Program-made: the position numbers and the translations under genes
The notes under the pieces: model-generated
What the model was told of the DNA's origin: nothing
What the model saw: only the letters and a program-made list of their open reading frames with translations
Databases searched by the model: none
Part shown: in pieces, positions 1-5,905 of the stretch
Layout of the letters: each line of letters opens with the position of its first letter
How positions within the stretch are numbered: position 1 is the stretch's first letter
NCBI RefSeq assembly: GCF_004376175.1
Contig: NZ_SNUY01000110.1
Coordinates: 1 to 5,905, forward strand
Direction of reading: 5' to 3'
Length of the DNA: 5,905 nucleotides
Origin: Halalkalibacterium halodurans
GTDB lineage: Bacteria; Bacillota; Bacilli; Bacillales; Bacillaceae_D

Positions 1-947
1 AGACTCGTTACAAAAAATGAATGGGTAAACAACAATTCGCCTGCAGGGCGAACCGATTGGATGATGACCTTTCTCGGCTTAGACCATGATTTCGCTTGAT
101 AGTCGATTTCCTCATAATAACATTCAGACTTTGTCACATCTGACGGTACTGTGGCTGGATGACATTCATCTGCCATTCGCTGTAAAATGGCGTTAGATTT
201 CAAACGAATGACATAATAAACCGATTCACGTTCACATAAATCGTATAGAGCTGGAACGGCAAAACCACTATCGCCGCGTAAGAATGGTGTCGTTGCCGGA
301 AATTTTTCATTGTAATGTTTGATAAGTGGTTCCACAAAATCCACAACACCATTGGACGTATACACATTTCCAGGGCGTAGCTGGGCTTTTAGGAAATCGC
401 CTGTTATCCCATCGAAGGCAACCAATGGATGAAAGCCAACAGTCCCGTAATGGGTATTATAAGCTGTAAATTCTTGTTGGCCGTATGTGTCAGCATGTGT
501 TGAATCTAAATCAATGATGAGTGCTTTTGACTCTCTCAGTTCATGTACTTTATCTAAAAGTTCTTGGTTAGCGTGATGTAATTGTTCAATGGACTCATGA
601 TCAAATCGTGTATAAAAGCGAGATAAACTAGGTTGAGAACCTAACGCATTTGTTCCAATGACTTGTGTAAAAACGGGGTCATTTGTTAATTGATCGGCCG
701 CATCATCCTCGGCATAACCAGCGATGACTTGATAAAGCTTTTGACGAAGTAGATTTTCATTTGAATGAACATGGTATTTTCTCTCGTCGTTCAGATGCAG
801 GTGTTGAACAAGAGTATCAGAGAATCCGATTTTTTCATCAAACTCTCGAAAAACGAATTCACCTGTATCAGAAGAAAGAGAGCCTCCATCAGTTGATAAT
901 TTAATTCGACGATTGAAATCTAGTGTTAGTTGCGGTAAAGTAGCCAT
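1..947 (-). CDS. IS1380-family DDE transposase, N-terminal ~315 codons (3' end runs off the left edge of the window)
   Basis: Absent from the ORF track because there is no in-window stop. Hand translation of the minus strand from ATG 947..945 stays open to position 3: MATLPQLTLDFNRRIKLSTDGGSLSSDTGEFVFREFDEKIGFSDTLVQHL...LYQVIAGYAEDDAADQLTNDPVFTQVIG...LGSQPSLSRF...ALIIDLDSTHADTYGQQEFTAYNTHYGTVGFHPLVAFDGITGDFLKAQLRPGNVYTSNG...FLRGDSGFAVPALYDLCE...YYVIRLKSN...KVIIQSVRPAGELLFTHSFFVTS. The blocks GY-x-D-x-x-D, SQP(S/T)LSRF, D-x-DST..G.QE..YN.HYG..HPL, LRPGN and RGDSGFA are the conserved blocks I recall for IS1380 / DDE_Tnp_1_4 (PF13701) transposases. An SD-like AAGGA lies 8 nt upstream of the ATG. 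Confidence 0.85.
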   Translation of the reverse strand, partial: MATLPQLTLDFNRRIKLSTDGGSLSSDTGEFVFREFDEKIGFSDTLVQHLHLNDERKYHVHSNENLLRQKLYQVIAGYAEDDAADQLTNDPVFTQVIGTNALGSQPSLSRFYTRFDHESIEQLHHANQELLDKVHELRESKALIIDLDSTHADTYGQQEFTAYNTHYGTVGFHPLVAFDGITGDFLKAQLRPGNVYTSNGVVDFVEPLIKHYNEKFPATTPFLRGDSGFAVPALYDLCERESVYYVIRLKSNAILQRMADECHPATVPSDVTKSECYYEEIDYQAKSWSKPRKVIIQSVRPAGELLFTHSFFVTS

Positions 948-1008
948 TATAAGAATCCTTTCTGTGGTTATTTCGTAGCTGTTTTAACCTTATCAGAAAT
1001 GGATTCTT
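1..1008 (-). mobile_element. Partial IS1380-family insertion sequence (transposase-start end); the outer boundary is unresolved and lies somewhere between ~1008 and ~1100
   Basis: It contains the transposase CDS plus its upstream leader. G+C drops markedly to the right of about 1010. The terminal inverted repeat cannot be identified because the other IS end is outside the window. 1008 is a minimal extent that includes the 8-bp inverted repeat 951..958 / 1001..1008. Confidence 0.5.
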
Positions 1009-1118
1009 TTTTCATTTATTTGATGCATGGACCATTTAGCTCAATACCTTGATAGATAAGCATTATTTGGTTATCAAAGATTTTTTATGAATAATTCAGG
1101 ATGAATAATAAGTTATAC

Positions 1119-2132
1119 TTATTTTAAGCAACTTACTAAAAATATAATTATATAGTGAAATGCCTGATCCAATTCCATCATGGTAGGTTGAACGGACTCA
1201 TTTTCTGTATTAGTCATTTTTTTAACATTTTTAGCCCACCATATCAAAATAATTCTCCGATCAATAATTACATGACTCACAAAGATTATAAAAATAGCTA
1301 TCCAACTAAAATATCCTGCAAAGATGTAGCCCATTGCCGTTAAAACTAACGTATAAATAAAACTATGTGATAATAACGCCTTCCAGCTAGTTGTTTTTTT
1401 TACTGCTTGTCGATCTGTTTGAAGTAAATAATCAGCAATCTTATGTCCAATATAAAGTATAATAAATAATTTAATATTAAAATTTACACCGGGAACAAAA
1501 TTATTTATCTCTATAAAGCCAAATATTTTAGAACCAAATAAATAAGTAAACAAAAGCATTATTGTTATTAAAAAGTAAATTACAGCGGTAATTGCTGAAC
1601 TAGCACGAGCAATTTTAACATTCCTTATCAAAGAAATCTTTTGCAACTCAAGCACTAATTCTTTCTCAATAGATATGTTGTCAAGCATTGAAATTTTATC
1701 ATGGTAATCTTTGGCACTTTCCCTTATCTGAAGTTTTTTATAATTTCCATATAAATATTTACCTTTTATTTCAGGTGTTGTTTCGGCTAGAAAAAATAAA
1801 CCTTGAGCATCAAAATCTTTGGTATTAATTTGATTATTAGGATTAATTCGAGGAACCAGAGTCAAATACGACAACCATACACTTTTCAAAAAGAAAAAAA
1901 TCAAAGCTATAATAAAAATTGCAATCAGAAATTGTTCTGATTTATTCTCTAAACCAAACAAAAAATTATACCATTCATTTTTTGTTCGGATAAGAATATT
2001 CATAACTAGTGTCCAAAAAGCAATTACAACTCCTGCTTTCGTATCCGTAAAGCGAATTGTATTTTGCGTATCGTCAATAGCCTTATATAGAAATTCCAAT
2101 TTATTCTTGTCATCTTTTTTTTCATCTGACAA
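1119..2132 (-). CDS. Polytopic membrane protein, candidate effector: N-terminal Pycsar-TM-effector-like domain (3 TM) fused to a DUF3307-like 4-TM C-terminal domain
   Basis: 337-aa ORF from the track. The start is TTG (2132..2130), preceded by GAGGG (2144..2140) with a 7-nt spacer; the next in-frame Met is codon 44, inside the first TM segment. Hydrophobic segments: AGVVIAFWTLVMNILI, FLIAIFIIALIFFFL..VWLSYL, AITAVIYFLITIMLLFTYLF, IKLFIILYIG, LLSHSFIYTLVLTAMGYIFAG, FSWIAIFIIFVSHVII, FHYIIIFLVSCL. The N-terminal pattern (helix ending in RFTDTKAG, two TMs, a ~85-aa soluble loop, a third TM) matches my recollection of PF18967 (Pycsar effector domain, formerly DUF5706). The C-terminal GHKIADYLLQTDRQAVKK ... 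SH ... SHVIIDR matches the H-x3-D-[FY]-x2-Q ... K ... H-x3-D pattern I recall for DUF3307 (PF11750). No Crp-type cNMP-binding barrel or SAVED domain is recognisable. Both domain calls are from memory. Confidence 0.6.
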   Translation of the reverse strand: MSDEKKDDKNKLEFLYKAIDDTQNTIRFTDTKAGVVIAFWTLVMNILIRTKNEWYNFLFGLENKSEQFLIAIFIIALIFFFLKSVWLSYLTLVPRINPNNQINTKDFDAQGLFFLAETTPEIKGKYLYGNYKKLQIRESAKDYHDKISMLDNISIEKELVLELQKISLIRNVKIARASSAITAVIYFLITIMLLFTYLFGSKIFGFIEINNFVPGVNFNIKLFIILYIGHKIADYLLQTDRQAVKKTTSWKALLSHSFIYTLVLTAMGYIFAGYFSWIAIFIIFVSHVIIDRRIILIWWAKNVKKMTNTENESVQPTMMELDQAFHYIIIFLVSCLK

Positions 2133-2135
2133 ACG

Positions 2136-2603
2136 TTATCCCTCACAATCGATAATTTCGTAATTCATGTCCTTTATAACTTCTCCGAATTTATTAATCT
2201 TGTATATAGAAAATTTAACGTTACCATCATGAATTCCAGTAATGATAAAAATAGGAGCATGAGTACTATCGAAATAATTATTAATATTTATCATTGTAGA
2301 CTGATCTAACTTAGAAGGGATTAAGCTGTAATTTCTTGGATGGGAATGCCAAGTACCAATCAAAAATTGGTTTATTTGAAGTTTTTCTTTTACATATTCT
2401 AAAAGGCTATCGTTATCGAATTCAACTTTTGAAAAAGTTCTTTTAGCATTACGCCCTGCATCAGAAACATCTAGAACTCGTACCCATTCTGGATTCATCT
2501 TTCCAAAAATATATCCACCATTTTCAGTATCATTATATTTTACCGTGAGTTTTTCCATTTTTTTAATTACTTTTTTTGAAATATATATTTTCCTTTTTTT
2601 CAT
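2136..2603 (-). CDS. JAB/JAMM (MPN+) metalloisopeptidase, Cap3-like
   Basis: 155-aa ORF. JAMM elements are present in order: the Glu in TENGGYIFG, then GTWHSHPRNYSLIPSKLD (H-x-H ... P-S-x-x-D). Its size is typical of stand-alone prokaryotic JAB proteins. ATG 2603..2601 overlaps the upstream TGA (2602..2600) as ATGA, and an AAGGGAAAG SD-like stretch lies upstream. Confidence 0.88.
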   Translation of the reverse strand: MKKRKIYISKKVIKKMEKLTVKYNDTENGGYIFGKMNPEWVRVLDVSDAGRNAKRTFSKVEFDNDSLLEYVKEKLQINQFLIGTWHSHPRNYSLIPSKLDQSTMININNYFDSTHAPIFIITGIHDGNVKFSIYKINKFGEVIKDMNYEIIDCEG

Positions 2604-4270
2604 ATACTTTCCCTTTCACAAAAACACAAGTGACTTTTATCTAAATAACCGATTAGAGGTGTAGGAATTATATCGTCCATTCCCCAATAATAATTAACAT
2701 AGTCAAATTTAAATTTCCCATGCTTATTATAAAAGGAAAGAATTGACACAATCTGTGTTGCTAAAAAGACCATTCGTTCCATTTGTGATACCGTATGTGG
2801 GTTCCCGCAAATATCAATTTCATTCGAATCGTATTTTTCTATTTCCTTTTGTGATAATTCCTGTATTTGTTTTAAATCTTTATTTTCCTTTGCTTCATGA
2901 TAGTAGCAATTTAAGCATCCTGTAGAGGGAGTAGTTATTACTATCTCTTGTAAGATATTGTTAGCTGATGTCCACGCCCAAATAACAGGCTTTTTATAAT
3001 TTATTAATTTATTAAATGCAAAATAATCAAATTTAGCCGAATCCCCCACAGTTACAATAAGAACATCAGCTAATTCAATTACCTCGTCATCATTAGCCGT
3101 TGCAAAAATATTCTCATGCAAATAATAATTAGATAAAAGTTGTTTTAATGCAAGTGATTTATATTCACCTACATGAATTGAACCTAGTACATGCCTACCA
3201 ATATTTTCAAGAGCCATTTTATCGTAATCCGCCATTAACAAAGCTTTCACATCTTTTTCAGCTAATAATCTCGCAATTTGACTTCCTAAAGAACCTACTC
3301 CTATCATCCCTACTGTCATATCAATTCCATTAGGGCGTTCAGGGATACCTTCTATTTTAATATTAGTTACGTTAAATTCCGCATCTCGCTCAAATGATTC
3401 TCTTCCTGTAATGAAAGAAGTAACCTCTGTCTTTCCTCGATCACCTTTGTACATGATCAAAAAGATTAGGCTTTTTATATCCTTATCTATAGAACTTATA
3501 GGAAAGTTGTTCCTTAGAGTTTGAATCAATTGGTAAAGAGTTTTAAATGAAAAGCCTCTTGGAAGTCGTACAAGAAAAAGAGTCGATTTAGAATGTTTAT
3601 TTGGCAGTCGAAATTGTTTTAGAATATTAAAACCTCTATCTTCACTAAAATCAGGAAAGAAAGAATATGGTTTGTTTGAATCTATGCTTTCATATTCATA
3701 AGTTTCTCCCCTCTTTTTGGTAGAGGCCTCTTTCCCATTTTTAAATAAAAATGGTGTATGATCAACAGTCGTTTTATAAAACTTTTTAAGTTCAATACTT
3801 TCAAATTGATTTATAAATCCTTTAGGTAGATACATTACTAATTGGGTAAATTGAGGTAATATTCTCCACGATATTAAATCTTCCTCTTTCTTCCAGTCTT
3901 GGTTGACATTAGACTGTAACCAGTCTAAAATTCTTTGATAAATAAAATTACCATTGTATTCAACTTTTGCTGCCCAATTATGTAAACAACAAATATAGAA
4001 CTGTGAATTTTTGGGGTTATCAATCAATAATTCATCAATATGTCGCCAATTAGCTGGTATTACTTTATGCAAGTTACTTTCACCATTTATACTAATTAAT
4101 TTTATTGACGGCTGCTTCAAAGGATAATCTTTTATTGAAACCTCTACATTAATATAATAACCATTTTCCTCACCATTTTGAGGGATCCTACCCACACCAA
4201 TAGTTTCTTCAGAAAAGCAGAAACCGAGTTCTTGTAACTCGGCTTTTACTTCTATTAATTGACTACCCAT
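2600..4270 (-). CDS. E2-E1 fusion protein, Cap2-like (N-terminal UBC/E2-like domain, C-terminal ThiF/MoeB-type E1 adenylation domain)
   Basis: The E2-like N-terminus has DYPLKQPSIKLIS...WRHID...FYICCLHNW, i.e. YP-x3-P, a His, then a candidate catalytic Cys. The E1 domain has VGMIGVGSLGSQIARLLAEKDVKALLMADYDKMALENIGRH (Rossmann GxGxxG followed by a D-x-D...N..R nucleotide-binding block). It also has a candidate crossover-loop Cys (IDICGNP) and a CxxC...CxC cysteine set (TGCLNC ... HLCFC) like the ThiF/MoeB zinc site. The start is placed at the internal ATG 4270..4268 (MGSQLIEV...), not the track start at 4363. That ATG has GAGAAGG 6 nt upstream and overlaps the cyclase stop by only 8 nt (ATGGGTAG), whereas the 4363 start would overlap the cyclase gene by 101 nt. 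Confidence 0.85.
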   Translation of the reverse strand: MGSQLIEVKAELQELGFCFSEETIGVGRIPQNGEENGYYINVEVSIKDYPLKQPSIKLISINGESNLHKVIPANWRHIDELLIDNPKNSQFYICCLHNWAAKVEYNGNFIYQRILDWLQSNVNQDWKKEEDLISWRILPQFTQLVMYLPKGFINQFESIELKKFYKTTVDHTPFLFKNGKEASTKKRGETYEYESIDSNKPYSFFPDFSEDRGFNILKQFRLPNKHSKSTLFLVRLPRGFSFKTLYQLIQTLRNNFPISSIDKDIKSLIFLIMYKGDRGKTEVTSFITGRESFERDAEFNVTNIKIEGIPERPNGIDMTVGMIGVGSLGSQIARLLAEKDVKALLMADYDKMALENIGRHVLGSIHVGEYKSLALKQLLSNYYLHENIFATANDDEVIELADVLIVTVGDSAKFDYFAFNKLINYKKPVIWAWTSANNILQEIVITTPSTGCLNCYYHEAKENKDLKQIQELSQKEIEKYDSNEIDICGNPHTVSQMERMVFLATQIVSILSFYNKHGKFKFDYVNYYWGMDDIIPTPLIGYLDKSHLCFCERESI

Positions 4271-5351
4271 GTTGTACCTTCTCTTGTCTTGCAATATGAA
4301 TACTTGCAGCCTTGGCCATTTCAGATGCATCATAAACATTACAATATCCTGCGACTTCTTCAATTGTTATTATTTCATCCTTATATGGCTTACAATCTAA
4401 ATAATATACTTTTCTATTCTGTTTTTGCCCGAACATTTGCCTTTCATAATTAGTATAAAAACATATAGGAACTTCCTCTTTAAAATCCATTAATTCCTTA
4501 TATTTCTCTCCTAGAATTAAAATTCTTCCGTACTTTGGTGAACCTTCTATTTTTTCTTCTTTGATGTCATTATAATAACTTAACAACTTCGCAGAAAAGT
4601 CAATTTCAAATGAAGTAGCCTTTACTTCACCAACAGCTTTCTTTATACCGTTATCATTAACAATAACACCTTGAGGATTCATAAGAGTATTATTGGAGAA
4701 TTCAATTCCTACTTTTATATCAAGTAAATTGTTGGAGCTATTTGCAAACGTTTCTTGACCTTTGTCAATTAAATTTTGCCTTAATTCTTCATTTAATAAA
4801 TCTGTACTTTCAAGTATTCTTAACGCTATAAGAAAAGCCCTAGCACCAATAGTCCAATCATCTGCATCTTCTGGTTGTGTTCCACCAATTAAAATCATCA
4901 AACCATCACCCGTAATGGAGTGAATATGTGCTTGATAATATCTTGCTAACCTAATCCAAGTTGATATTGCTTTTTGCTTTAATTCAGCAATCTCCTGAAT
5001 TGTTTCAATCCCCGGTTCATCTACAAATAATGCTCTTCTAGTAAAATTTCGTAAATCAACAAAAAGTGAACACATTTTAACATCAGCTTTTTGGTTGATT
5101 TCATTATAAAAATCATTTTCCTCTCTAACATTCTCTAATAGATAATCAAAATCTATATGTCCGCCTATTTTAAAACCCTTTTCTAATTCCTGCTTTATAA
5201 TAGTTTCTATTTCTCTTTCTTGCTGCTGATCCTCTGCACTTTTAAATAAATTTTTTTGCTCATTTAATAGTACGGAGAGAGGATTTTTACTTATTTTATA
5301 GCGAGTATTATTCGATATAACTGAGCGATACATTGAACCCTTATTAACCAA
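4263..5351 (-). CDS. Class III nucleotidyl cyclase-like protein (Pycsar PycC-like / adenylate-guanylate cyclase fold) with N- and C-terminal extensions and a C-terminal Gly
   Basis: 362-aa ORF. The order of CHD elements is recognisable. MCSLFVDLRNFTRRA matches the F-x-D-[ILV]-x-[GN]-F-T first metal Asp block (D99, nt 5057..5055). HSITGDGLMILIGG gives the second metal Asp in the GD block (D149, nt 4907..4905). IKVGIEFSN matches the R/K-[IV]-G-[IV]-h-x-G block. SFEIDFSAKLLS aligns by eye to the G..VN.A.R block. GRILILGEKYKEL matches the G.I.vS...y..l block. The track start is TTG 5351..5349, with GGGGG (5363..5359) and a 7-nt spacer. An alternative ATG at 5333 (MYRS...) has a weaker AAGGG SD-like element 4 nt upstream, so the start is uncertain by 6 codons. 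The protein ends ...ARQEKVQHG-stop. Confidence 0.75.
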   Translation of the reverse strand: MVNKGSMYRSVISNNTRYKISKNPLSVLLNEQKNLFKSAEDQQQEREIETIIKQELEKGFKIGGHIDFDYLLENVREENDFYNEINQKADVKMCSLFVDLRNFTRRALFVDEPGIETIQEIAELKQKAISTWIRLARYYQAHIHSITGDGLMILIGGTQPEDADDWTIGARAFLIALRILESTDLLNEELRQNLIDKGQETFANSSNNLLDIKVGIEFSNNTLMNPQGVIVNDNGIKKAVGEVKATSFEIDFSAKLLSYYNDIKEEKIEGSPKYGRILILGEKYKELMDFKEEVPICFYTNYERQMFGQKQNRKVYYLDCKPYKDEIITIEEVAGYCNVYDASEMAKAASIHIARQEKVQHG

Positions 5352-5404
5352 TATTATTCCCCCATTCCTTTATTGTTTAGCTCCATTCTAAATTAGCAAT
5401 CATA

Positions 5405-5440
5405 TAAATAAATTGTAAGATATTTTTGTCAAATCCACAA
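5405..5440 (-). promoter_or_regulatory. Candidate sigma-A-type promoter for the operon
   Basis: Minus strand: TTGTGG (5440..5435), 17 nt, TACAAT (5417..5412). A perfect TTGACA (5432..5427) overlaps this but has only poor -10 hexamers at 16-19 nt. Either element would give a leader of about 50-60 nt to the cyclase start. Such matches are common in AT-rich DNA, so confidence is low. Confidence 0.3.
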
Positions 5441-5470
5441 GATTCATGTCCCTTAAAACCATTACCTTTG

Positions 5471-5520
5471 AACTATAAATCCATTTAACTATAAATCCTT
5501 CACAAAACTTTAACTATAGA
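5471..5520. repeat. Short direct repeat: AACTATAAATCC x2 (5471..5482, 5487..5498) plus a partial third copy AACTATAGA (5512..5520), each preceded by TT(T/G)
   Basis: Read directly from the sequence. The two exact 12-mers are 16 bp apart and the third, degenerate copy is 25 bp further on. The repeats lie about 30-90 bp upstream of the candidate operon promoter. Confidence 0.6.
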
Positions 5521-5796
5521 GAAAGAAAATATCCGTATATTTGGTACATTCGATTATCAGCTGCTCTGAATAATTAAAGTAAGGAATAACTACTGAGGAA
5601 ACAATATATTTTTACTCACAATTTAAGATTAGTTTAAAAATTAAAAAGAGGATTACTAAAATTAGAGTGCGGCATAATTACTACAATTTATTAACAAAGT
5701 TTTATACATTATTTAGTGACTAAAATGAAAAAAACGATCCAAAAAGGAAAGATTTATTAAAATTGAACCATAAAATTTGGTTCTTAGTCAAATGTT

Positions 5797-5835
5797 GGGG
5801 TGGCATAGGAGGGCGAGCCCCTCTTATCCTACCCC
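5797..5835. repeat. Imperfect palindrome GGGGTGGCATAGGAGGG-cgagc-CCCTCTTATCCTACCCC at the AT-rich/GC-richer boundary; possible terminal or subterminal structure of the right-hand IS
   Basis: 14 of 17 positions pair around a 5-nt loop (counted by hand). The palindrome overlaps the stop codon (5826..5824) of the minus-strand partial ORF and coincides with the composition shift. Confidence 0.5.
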
Positions 5836-5905
5836 GAATGTCTGATGTTTGAATTGATGATGCAAGAGAATACGGTTTCGCAAGCGATCATAACGCCGAA
5901 AACCA
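5824..5905 (-). CDS. Probable 3' end (last 26 codons plus stop) of an ISL3-family transposase gene
   Basis: Minus-strand translation from 5904 gives GFRRYDRLRNRILLHHQFKHQTFGVG-stop (TAA 5826..5824). G-F-R-x-[FY]-x-x-[FL]-R-x-R-I-L is the C-terminal motif I recall for ISL3-family transposases (...AYGFRNFxNFRxRIL...). Only 26 residues are visible, so the call is tentative. Confidence 0.4.
   Translation of the reverse strand, partial: GFRRYDRLRNRILLHHQFKHQTFGVG

Follow-up and report, generated by a model that had tools for sequence, protein, structure and literature searches.

Operons that combine a cyclase with Cap2-like and Cap3-like proteins have been published as 'Type II Pycsar' (bioRxiv 10.1101/2024.11.21.623953), and a 'Pycsar-like-4' subclade with E2, E1 and JAB neighbours and a modelled preference for ATP has also been described (bioRxiv 10.64898/2026.08.12.744502). 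The latter work presents PycTM as a three-helix protein of the pJV1-SpdB3 type, and EcPucTM as a hexamer with a central channel lined by the second transmembrane helix (TM2) and a mainly helical cytoplasmic part carrying a small beta appendage. A membrane-leak output has been described for PycTM (PMC11224242). Herein, we analyse a stretch of 5,905 nucleotides from Halalkalibacterium halodurans (contig NZ_SNUY01000110.1, positions 1 to 5,905; hereafter, the window), carrying on its minus strand an operon of four genes: a cyclase, a Cap2-like E2-E1 fusion, a Cap3-like JAB isopeptidase and, last, an effector of 337 aa (1119..2132). By its gene content, including a cyclase with a C-terminal Gly, an E2-E1 protein with ThiF, a JAB protein and a membrane effector, the locus resembles Type II Pycsar and 'Pycsar-like-4'. 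The difference lies in the effector: the published accounts that we searched mention neither DUF3307 nor a seven-helix effector.

We hold it very probable that this effector has a two-module architecture, in which a PycTM module (residues 1-206; 1515..2132, minus strand) is followed by a DUF3307 module (residues 220-337; 1122..1475, minus strand). The literature searched describes neither such a seven-helix PycTM-DUF3307 protein, nor its split form, nor a general association of DUF3307 with cyclases. Since both domains of the fusion are already annotated in databases, we regard it as a variant of a known effector rather than as a new kind of system. Nevertheless, it touches on two questions, namely by what means effectors of the PycTM type sense their nucleotide and what prevents self-killing in Type II (Cap2/Cap3) Pycsar. 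Moreover, the effector family exists in fused and split forms, and the contribution of the extra module is therefore directly testable by deletion and point mutation.

Architecture and Topology of the Effector

The effector gene begins with a TTG codon, 8 nt downstream of a GAGGG ribosome-binding site, and its product differs from a Caldifermentibacillus hisashii protein by a single residue (L69Q). An earlier note on this DNA had counted about seven hydrophobic segments; hydropathy and AlphaFold2 secondary structure confirm seven membrane helices, at residues 34-50, 66-92, 177-206, 220-237, 250-272, 277-300 and 318-335. The same note had placed an RFTDTKAG motif, two membrane segments, a soluble loop and a third membrane segment in the N-terminal part, and three further motifs in the C-terminal part. 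All of these elements are present, the former within residues 1-206 (RFTDTKAG at 27-34) and the latter within residues 230-292 (HKIADYLLQTDRQAVKK at 230-246, SH at 255-256 and SHVIIDR at 286-292). Mean numbers of Lys plus Arg in the successive loops of 38 homologues alternate (5.7, 1.3, 12.9, 0.4, 2.1, 0.1, 3.9 and 0.1), indicating that the N-terminus lies inside and the C-terminus outside. By this charge pattern, the N-terminus, the insert at residues 93-176 and two loops of the DUF3307 module are predicted to be cytoplasmic, and the C-terminus to be outside.

Between the modules runs an extracytoplasmic, variable linker (residues 207-219; 1476..1514, minus strand), which is the least confident segment of the full-length model (predicted local distance difference test, pLDDT, below 50) and the least conserved one in the alignment of the fusion family (mean identity 21%). 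The full-length model reached a predicted TM-score (pTM) of 0.57, against 0.86 for the DUF3307 module alone, so that the relative geometry of the two halves is uncertain. A search of the full-length model against Protein Data Bank (PDB) folds returned nothing significant (best E=0.42).

Families for cyclic-nucleotide binding, SAVED, TIR, patatin and nucleases gave no match to the effector in Pfam (to E<=10), NCBIfam or PADLOC, which agrees with the earlier reading that a Crp-like barrel and the other four are lacking. That reading had also presented the protein as an unusual, sensorless fusion. A recognisable sensor domain is indeed absent, but the peculiarity does not hold: PycTM proteins generally have no recognisable sensor, so its lack is a property of the PycTM family, and the fusion itself is a conserved family.

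The PycTM Half

Two PADLOC profiles recognise the effector: PycTM PDLC02364 matches residues 9-201 with E=1.8e-13 (profile positions 3-154 of 160), and PDLC02363 scores E=4.8e-11. The earlier note had likened this half to Pfam PF18967. The PycTM identity stands, but the Pfam profile itself does not reach significance, as PF18967.5 gave E=0.092 and 13.6 bits for the N-terminal half, below its cut-off of 27.2, even if PF18967.6 is listed for homologues of the effector in precomputed annotation. Because of this score, the assignment was kept on the PADLOC profiles and on direct alignment. Residues 1-206 align end to end with five stand-alone PycTM proteins of 205-207 aa (P0042-P0046), and these proteins and the effector have an almost identical N-terminal helix, EFLYKAIDDTQNTIRFTDTKAG; one of the five belongs to a classical two-gene locus (Guanylate_cyc plus PycTM) of Alicyclobacillus. 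Judging from the PADLOC profiles and these alignments, the N-terminal half appears to be a genuine, full-length PycTM.

The module consists of an N-terminal cytoplasmic helix, TM1, TM2, a cytoplasmic insert and TM3. The N-terminal helix (residues 9-34; 2031..2108, minus strand), which includes RFTDTKAG, shows the highest mean pairwise identity of this half (75%). The insert between TM2 and TM3 (residues 93-176; 1605..1856, minus strand) ends in a conserved helix, ELQKxSxIRxxKxxR; the model shows it as largely helical, with two very short strand bridges and no beta-barrel. Residues D30, K32, F113, I169 and K173 are invariant even in comparison with PycTM proteins from distant loci that share only 18-20% identity. 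The insert is likely a signal-sensing or oligomerisation region.

The likeness to PycTM and PucTM therefore covers the full length of residues 1-206, the sharing of an operon with a Pycsar-type cyclase and the lack of a classical cyclic-nucleotide-binding domain, and our model contains the same elements as described for E. coli PucTM. By analogy, the cyclase product may be expected to trigger an oligomeric channel in the membrane. Unlike PycTM and PucTM, the window effector continues after TM3 with a DUF3307 module of 118 residues and four helices, which brings the total to seven.

The DUF3307 Half

The earlier proposal that the second half resembles DUF3307 (PF11750) proved correct. Pfam scores it at E=9.8e-12 and 45.4 bits in the whole protein and at 50 bits for the domain alone, well above the cut-off of 23. 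The effector keeps all eleven polar invariants of the family, that is, H230, D234, Q238, K246, H256, Y260, H287, D291, D322, Q323 and H326, or four His, three Asp, two Gln, one Lys and one Tyr. These residues are invariant or nearly so in an alignment of 80 DUF3307 sequences and, together with A243 (effector numbering), reach 85-100% conservation among 114 stand-alone members. They are spaced i, i+4, i+8 on the four helices (H-x3-D-x3-Q, H-x3-Y, H-x3-D and DQ-x2-H), two HxxxD motifs falling on TM1 and TM3 of the domain, and the charge-based topology places them between the middle of the membrane and its cytoplasmic interface. An earlier hint that intramembrane His and Asp residues speak for something beyond a passive pore is reinforced by this family-wide invariance and by the higher conservation of the DUF3307 half relative to the PycTM half among the fusions. 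From the nature of the residues and their spacing along the helices, the domain probably contains a metal centre.

A model of the domain alone, built by AlphaFold2 from 87 sequences, was of high confidence (pLDDT 95.9, pTM 0.86). Against PDB folds, it gave nothing significant (best E=1.2, TM-score about 0.33); the DUF3307 profile had no match among PDB sequences at E<=10, and no other Pfam family rose above noise. Structurally, the model is related solely to DUF3307 proteins of phages, one of them phiKZ Orf197-like (TM-score 0.80), and PHROG 2470, annotated as 'membrane protein' in the moron/host takeover category, matches DUF3307 at 1.2e-17. The DUF3307 family is widespread and its fold is predicted with high confidence; eleven polar residues are invariant in it, and none of its relatives has a solved structure. 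In the literature searched, it appears just as a BLAST label in one annotation table of a jumbo phage.

The two HxxxD motifs recall the CDF/ZnT transporters, which we take to have, like DUF3307, two such motifs on different membrane helices at similar depth. DUF3307 could, then, be an ion- or metal-conducting module, with a transport site resembling the tetrahedral site of CDF/ZnT or with a His/Asp proton wire. Within the effector, such a module would create or gate an additional leak (of H+, Mn2+, Zn2+ or Fe2+), and in the stand-alone loci considered below, it would supply or sense metal for the neighbouring cyclase and HD-GYP enzymes. Support for this comes from the position of the motifs on the first and third helices of the domain, between the middle of the membrane and its inner leaflet, from the small four-helix size, typical of oligomeric small transporters, and from the neighbours themselves, as class III cyclases and HD-GYP proteins belong to metal-dependent enzyme families. 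A membrane-leak output would also agree with the PycTM literature (PMC11224242). However, transport usually requires fewer residues than the eleven invariant polar ones found here within about 115 aa, a set that looks more like an active site. We detected no fold match to CDF, SMR or other transporters; the domain shows no sequence relationship to CDF/ZnT either, has four helices instead of six, lacks a cytoplasmic metal-binding domain and carries seven further invariant polar residues. Furthermore, an ungated leak would kill the cell in the case of the core-genome stand-alone loci, and the site has been lost in two fusions, one of which has an otherwise intact operon (see below). We consequently regard conduction as an unlikely function of DUF3307.

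Another way to read such a site is as that of an intramembrane hydrolase acting on a lipid or lipid-linked substrate of the inner leaflet, which would provide a second, enzymatic killing activity. The site does lie within the inner leaflet; to our knowledge, the well-known small four-helix membrane enzymes all use lipidic substrates (DgkA, MAPEG, LspA), and the series K...SH...SHxxxD is loosely reminiscent of what we take to be the motifs of PAP2 lipid phosphatases. On the other hand, no fold match to PAP2 or lipid enzymes was obtained, nor any other Pfam family above noise, and the same site is found in vertically inherited core-genome copies beside signalling genes. As stand-alone copies reside in core-genome loci, a lethal enzyme is disfavoured, and we consider this reading very unlikely.

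Several minor observations concern the family as such. Homology to YdjM/DUF457 was rejected, as only 4 of 80 DUF3307 sequences touch PF04307, at E>=2, and hhalign of the DUF3307 profile against a YdjM protein gave a probability of 0.07%. A heme-binding (bis-His) reading was set aside by reasoning, as the four His lie at similar depth and are paired with Asp at i+4. An internal duplication (TM1-TM2 resembling TM3-TM4) gave a weak hhalign signal (P=0.002, probability 13%), with the HxxxD motifs in register, and we do not claim it. An initial search with the C-terminal 121 aa against a set of 5.8 billion proteins yielded 2 matches from 12 candidates and was replaced by exhaustive representative and profile searches. 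The representative search also revealed a second architecture, in proteins of 240-298 aa (P0177, P0126, P0120, P0133 and P0170), where an N-terminal DUF3307 precedes a conserved hydrophobic module with G-x-(L/F)-ER and AKS-x-x-R(F/Y) motifs and no Pfam match. Besides the phiKZ Orf197-like protein, phage members occur in Arthrobacter and Mycobacterium phages and in a Vibrio jumbo phage (for all of these, records PQ362661.1, MN586029.1 and PV740454.1; BFVD entries A0A8S5PQC1 and A0A6J5RHJ6).

Fused, Split and Degenerate Forms

The fusion architecture was found in about 40 clusters (clustering at 90% identity) with 35-85% identity, and their named sources are almost all Bacillota: Metabacillus, Peribacillus, Saccharococcus, Paenibacillus, Rossellomorea and Exiguobacterium. 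One database member is already labelled 'Pycsar effector protein'. All inspected fusion contexts that were long enough contain the same four genes, namely those of Exiguobacterium, of the metagenome contigs L005 and L089, the former carrying a protein of a Bacillota metagenome-assembled genome (MAG), and of contig L103. In B. cereus, the same operon exists with PycTM (206 aa) and DUF3307 (124 aa) as separate, adjacent genes. The DUF3307 gene there has its own ribosome-binding site, AAGGAGGAGG, and keeps all of the invariants; the split coincides with the variable, low-confidence linker at residues 207-219. This split form is recorded in 43 blocks of the assembly collection.

Within the fusions, mean identity is 51-54% in the DUF3307 half and 44% in the PycTM half, and 35 of 38 proteins keep all twelve scored DUF3307 positions. 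Among the other three, P0035 has a single change (K246T), while P0014 (L101, 234-1247) and P0041 (L103, 2662-3672) have lost most invariants but kept the PycTM half and the four hydrophobic helices. P0041 is still preceded by a cyclase, Cap2 and JAB that look intact, and no further DUF3307 copy lies in its vicinity.

The two degenerate proteins might be taken as a sign that DUF3307 is a structural membrane extension only, e.g., one stabilising or spacing the PycTM oligomer, whose polar residues have no role in defence. That the four hydrophobic helices outlive the polar site in these cases fits such a scaffold, as does the uncertain placement of the two halves in the full-length model. Nonetheless, the twelve positions persist in nearly all of the other fusions, the DUF3307 half is better conserved than its partner, and the separate B. 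cereus gene retains the polar residues as well. The high conservation of this half disfavours a pure scaffold, which we rank as the least probable of the readings weighed here.

Distant Type II Pycsar loci (L093 and L094), with a cyclase about 25% identical to ours, encode a plain PycTM of 185-188 aa and no DUF3307. The PycTM gene lies upstream of the cyclase in these loci, unlike the effector gene of the window, which comes after Cap3 as the last gene of its operon.

Two shorter proteins, P0052 (192 aa) and P0065 (197 aa), begin at the ELxKxSxIRxxKxxR helix, which is followed by a single membrane helix and DUF3307. Either their gene calls are truncated at the N-terminus, or they represent a minimal form made of the last PycTM helix plus DUF3307. 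As to genomic surroundings, the split operon of the Bacillus cereus group (L001-L003; 2776-7010 and flanks) is situated inside a defence island, along with AbiH, a DUF8371 protein and either a giant AEP-TOTE/reverse-transcriptase gene or Tn7-like genes. In one genome of this group, it adjoins smpB.

Stand-Alone DUF3307 Genes and Nucleotide Cyclases

In the first two contexts of stand-alone DUF3307 genes that we inspected, the neighbours were a CHASE2-Guanylate_cyc gene (Brevibacillus) and genes for FecR and NHL proteins (Salisediminibacterium). We then examined 80 genome loci, in which open reading frames (ORFs) were called, neighbours were clustered and the clusters were checked against Pfam. 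The scan started from 20 closer DUF3307 sequences, so that the sample is biased to Bacillota-like members. When the cyclase domain was sought by iterative profile searching, a class III cyclase emerged within 2.5 kb of DUF3307 in 56 of the 80 loci; usually, the two genes shared a strand and were 3-100 nt apart, or only a GAF-HD-GYP gene lay in between. The chance that a random gene adjoins a class III cyclase is, by estimate rather than by a computed control, well under 1%.

The cyclases were of two kinds, SRPBCC plus DUF5939 plus Guanylate_cyc (35 loci) and CHASE2 plus Guanylate_cyc (16 loci). GAF plus HD_5 (HD-GYP) proteins were neighbours in 39 loci, and NHL lipoproteins and giant FecR-domain proteins made up the further dominant clusters. 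At least four gene orders were seen, in organisms as diverse as Bacilli, Clostridia, Desulfotomaculia, Solirubrobacterales (Actinomycetota) and a Zixibacteria MAG. A module of three genes (GAF-HD-GYP, DUF3307 and SRPBCC-DUF5939-cyclase) is conserved in Planococcaceae and Bacillaceae. A different module, composed of DUF3307, CHASE2-cyclase, a FecR giant and NHL, occurs in Brevibacillus and Clostridia. Loci with these modules lie among L013-L059 and others; examples are the GAF-HD-GYP gene at L052 5859-7004 and the cyclases at L036 3934-5766 and L025 7314-9158. Neither DUF3307-cyclase module is described in the literature searched, where DUF5939 goes unmentioned.

The genes flanking stand-alone DUF3307 are conserved within genera, e.g., Planococcus and Sporosarcina, a pattern to be expected of signalling loci that are inherited vertically and not of defence islands. 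They are not cryptic Pycsar systems either, given that PycTM, Cap2, JAB and the Pycsar-like-4 cyclase were absent from the vicinity of DUF3307 in all 80 loci. The stand-alone proteins (about 110-130 aa) share with the window module the four-helix domain, the eleven invariants, 35-46% identity and a genetic coupling to nucleotide cyclases, of class III in their own case, and differ from it in belonging to chromosomal signalling loci (with CHASE2 or SRPBCC-DUF5939 cyclases, GAF-HD-GYP, FecR and NHL) that have no PycTM partner. The nearest stand-alone relatives of the window domain, at about 35-46% identity, are almost all cyclase-adjacent.

Counting the Pycsar-like cyclase of the window, DUF3307 is therefore coupled to three cyclase architectures: CHASE2-cyclase, SRPBCC-DUF5939-cyclase and Pycsar-like. 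As the same invariant site accompanies all three, which are unrelated, its activity most likely belongs to the cyclase pathway in general and is compatible with growth. This link is the first functional lead for DUF3307 and makes the family a testable candidate component of bacterial signalling of the cyclic AMP/cyclic GMP type.

Such consistent genomic coupling could also mean that DUF3307 is the missing cyclic-nucleotide sensor, or a co-receptor, whose cytoplasm-facing pocket binds the signal and gates the attached PycTM channel; the stand-alone copies would then be membrane receptors for the neighbouring cyclases. The predicted pocket is open to the cytoplasm, the invariant Lys sits on a helix at the cytoplasmic interface, and the effector has no other recognisable sensor domain. 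Still, stand-alone PycTM proteins, which share the conserved cytoplasmic elements, work with a cyclase alone in two-gene systems. A pocket rich in His and Asp is also unlike known cyclic-nucleotide sites, where Arg, Ser, Thr and the backbone make the contacts, and its residues are lost in two fusions. A sensory role thus appears distinctly improbable to us.

A Possible Role for DUF3307 in the Effector

In the scenario that we favour, the operon is a Pycsar-like anti-phage system of Type II, regulated by Cap2 and Cap3, and the gene encodes its membrane effector, built of two separable modules. By analogy with PycTM and PucTM, the PycTM module would receive the cyclic mononucleotide made by the cyclase on its N-terminal helix and on the insert at residues 93-176, and would then form an oligomeric channel, so that the membrane is compromised and the infection aborted. 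DUF3307 would be a compact four-helix bundle in which the eleven invariant polar residues create a buried divalent-metal centre facing the cytoplasm. We picture it as an accessory of the cyclase/cyclic-nucleotide pathway, recruited next to PycTM in the membrane or fused to it, where it may act as a metal-dependent handler of the nucleotide signal, with hydrolysis as the most likely form of handling. A built-in eraser of this kind might set a threshold for a cyclase that is primed by Cap2 and restrained by Cap3. Taken as a whole, we find this scenario only slightly more convincing than its negation.

Its parts deserve different degrees of trust. That DUF3307 is an accessory rather than the killer is what we consider probable, given its coupling to three cyclase architectures and three further facts: stand-alone PycTM proteins work as effectors in two-gene systems, the distant Type II Pycsar loci do without DUF3307, and two fusions (P0014 and P0041) have lost the polar site. 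That it is specifically a phosphodiesterase-like eraser is a tentative suggestion, which we consider more likely to be wrong than right. A parallel is offered by other nucleotide-based defences whose accessories degrade the signal, such as the ring nucleases of CRISPR type III, one of which is membrane-associated: an eraser encoded together with the effector, or fused to it, limits self-toxicity and resets the system. These accessories have no homology to DUF3307, in which hydrolysis is hypothetical.

Several considerations weigh against the favoured scenario. The metal centre of DUF3307 is a proposal drawn from residue identity and helical spacing alone, and comparisons with PDB, Pfam and hhalign gave no fold or sequence relationship to a known phosphodiesterase, hydrolase or transporter. 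A site among membrane helices is an odd location for the hydrolysis of a soluble nucleotide, and many of the stand-alone loci already have a GAF-HD-GYP protein as a possible eraser. More remote members of the family, from Saccharibacteria, Chloroflexi, Streptomyces plasmids and phages, mostly show no link to cyclases, and the 80 stand-alone loci are those closest to one Bacillota sequence. Finally, the conservation of DUF3307 in 35 of 38 fusions fits an essential role in the effector as well. In the case of the Streptomyces plasmids, a profile search detected no SpdB3/PycTM-like neighbour of the DUF3307 genes.

It is tempting to go one step further and suppose that DUF3307 represents a new class of small, membrane-embedded metallo-proteins for cyclic-mononucleotide signalling, either phosphodiesterases or devices controlled by cyclic mononucleotides, which partner class III cyclases widely and were co-opted here as a regulator fused to an abortive-infection pore. 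We offer this idea as a speculation that is rather more likely to fail than to hold. If a role in cyclic-nucleotide signalling were true, the phage DUF3307 proteins (PHROG 2470, phiKZ Orf197-like) could be tools of counter-defence or host takeover that act on the same signals.

The Remaining Genes of the Operon and Its Flank

The cyclase gene (4263..5351, minus strand) encodes a Pycsar-type protein of 362 aa. PADLOC PycC profiles recognise it with E=6.7e-16 and E=4.6e-14, and neither Pfam (Guanylate_cyc) nor NCBIfam returned a match. Being recognised by the PADLOC PycC profiles only, it is probably a very divergent class III-type cyclase. The protein ends in QHG, as do those of B. cereus (L001, 2776-3864) and Exiguobacterium (L004, 3839-4903), and the one from metagenome contig L005 (3710-4795) ends in QHGL. 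A terminal Gly suits conjugation of the Cap2 type, for which the cyclase would be the expected substrate.

The Cap2-like E2-E1 fusion (2600..4270, minus strand) was identified by ThiF (E=8.6e-14) and PADLOC E1-E2 (E=3.2e-23). Homologues suggest that its start is probably the ATG at 4270, with the mechanical ORF reaching 4363, and this start makes an 8-nt overlap with the end of the cyclase gene (window 4263-4275). The Cap3-like JAB isopeptidase (2136..2603, minus strand; 155 aa) was recognised by Prok-JAB (E=3.4e-07) and PADLOC JAB (E=1.7e-17). The G+C content of the operon is about 27-32%, and Rfam and tRNA scans of the window found nothing.

The defence operon is flanked by a decayed insertion sequence at window positions 7-1028. 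This segment of about 1 kb, of higher G+C content and with no ORF longer than 55 aa, is a degraded transposase of the IS1380 family, and its DNA is 76% identical to an IS1380-family transposase gene from a Priestia megaterium plasmid.

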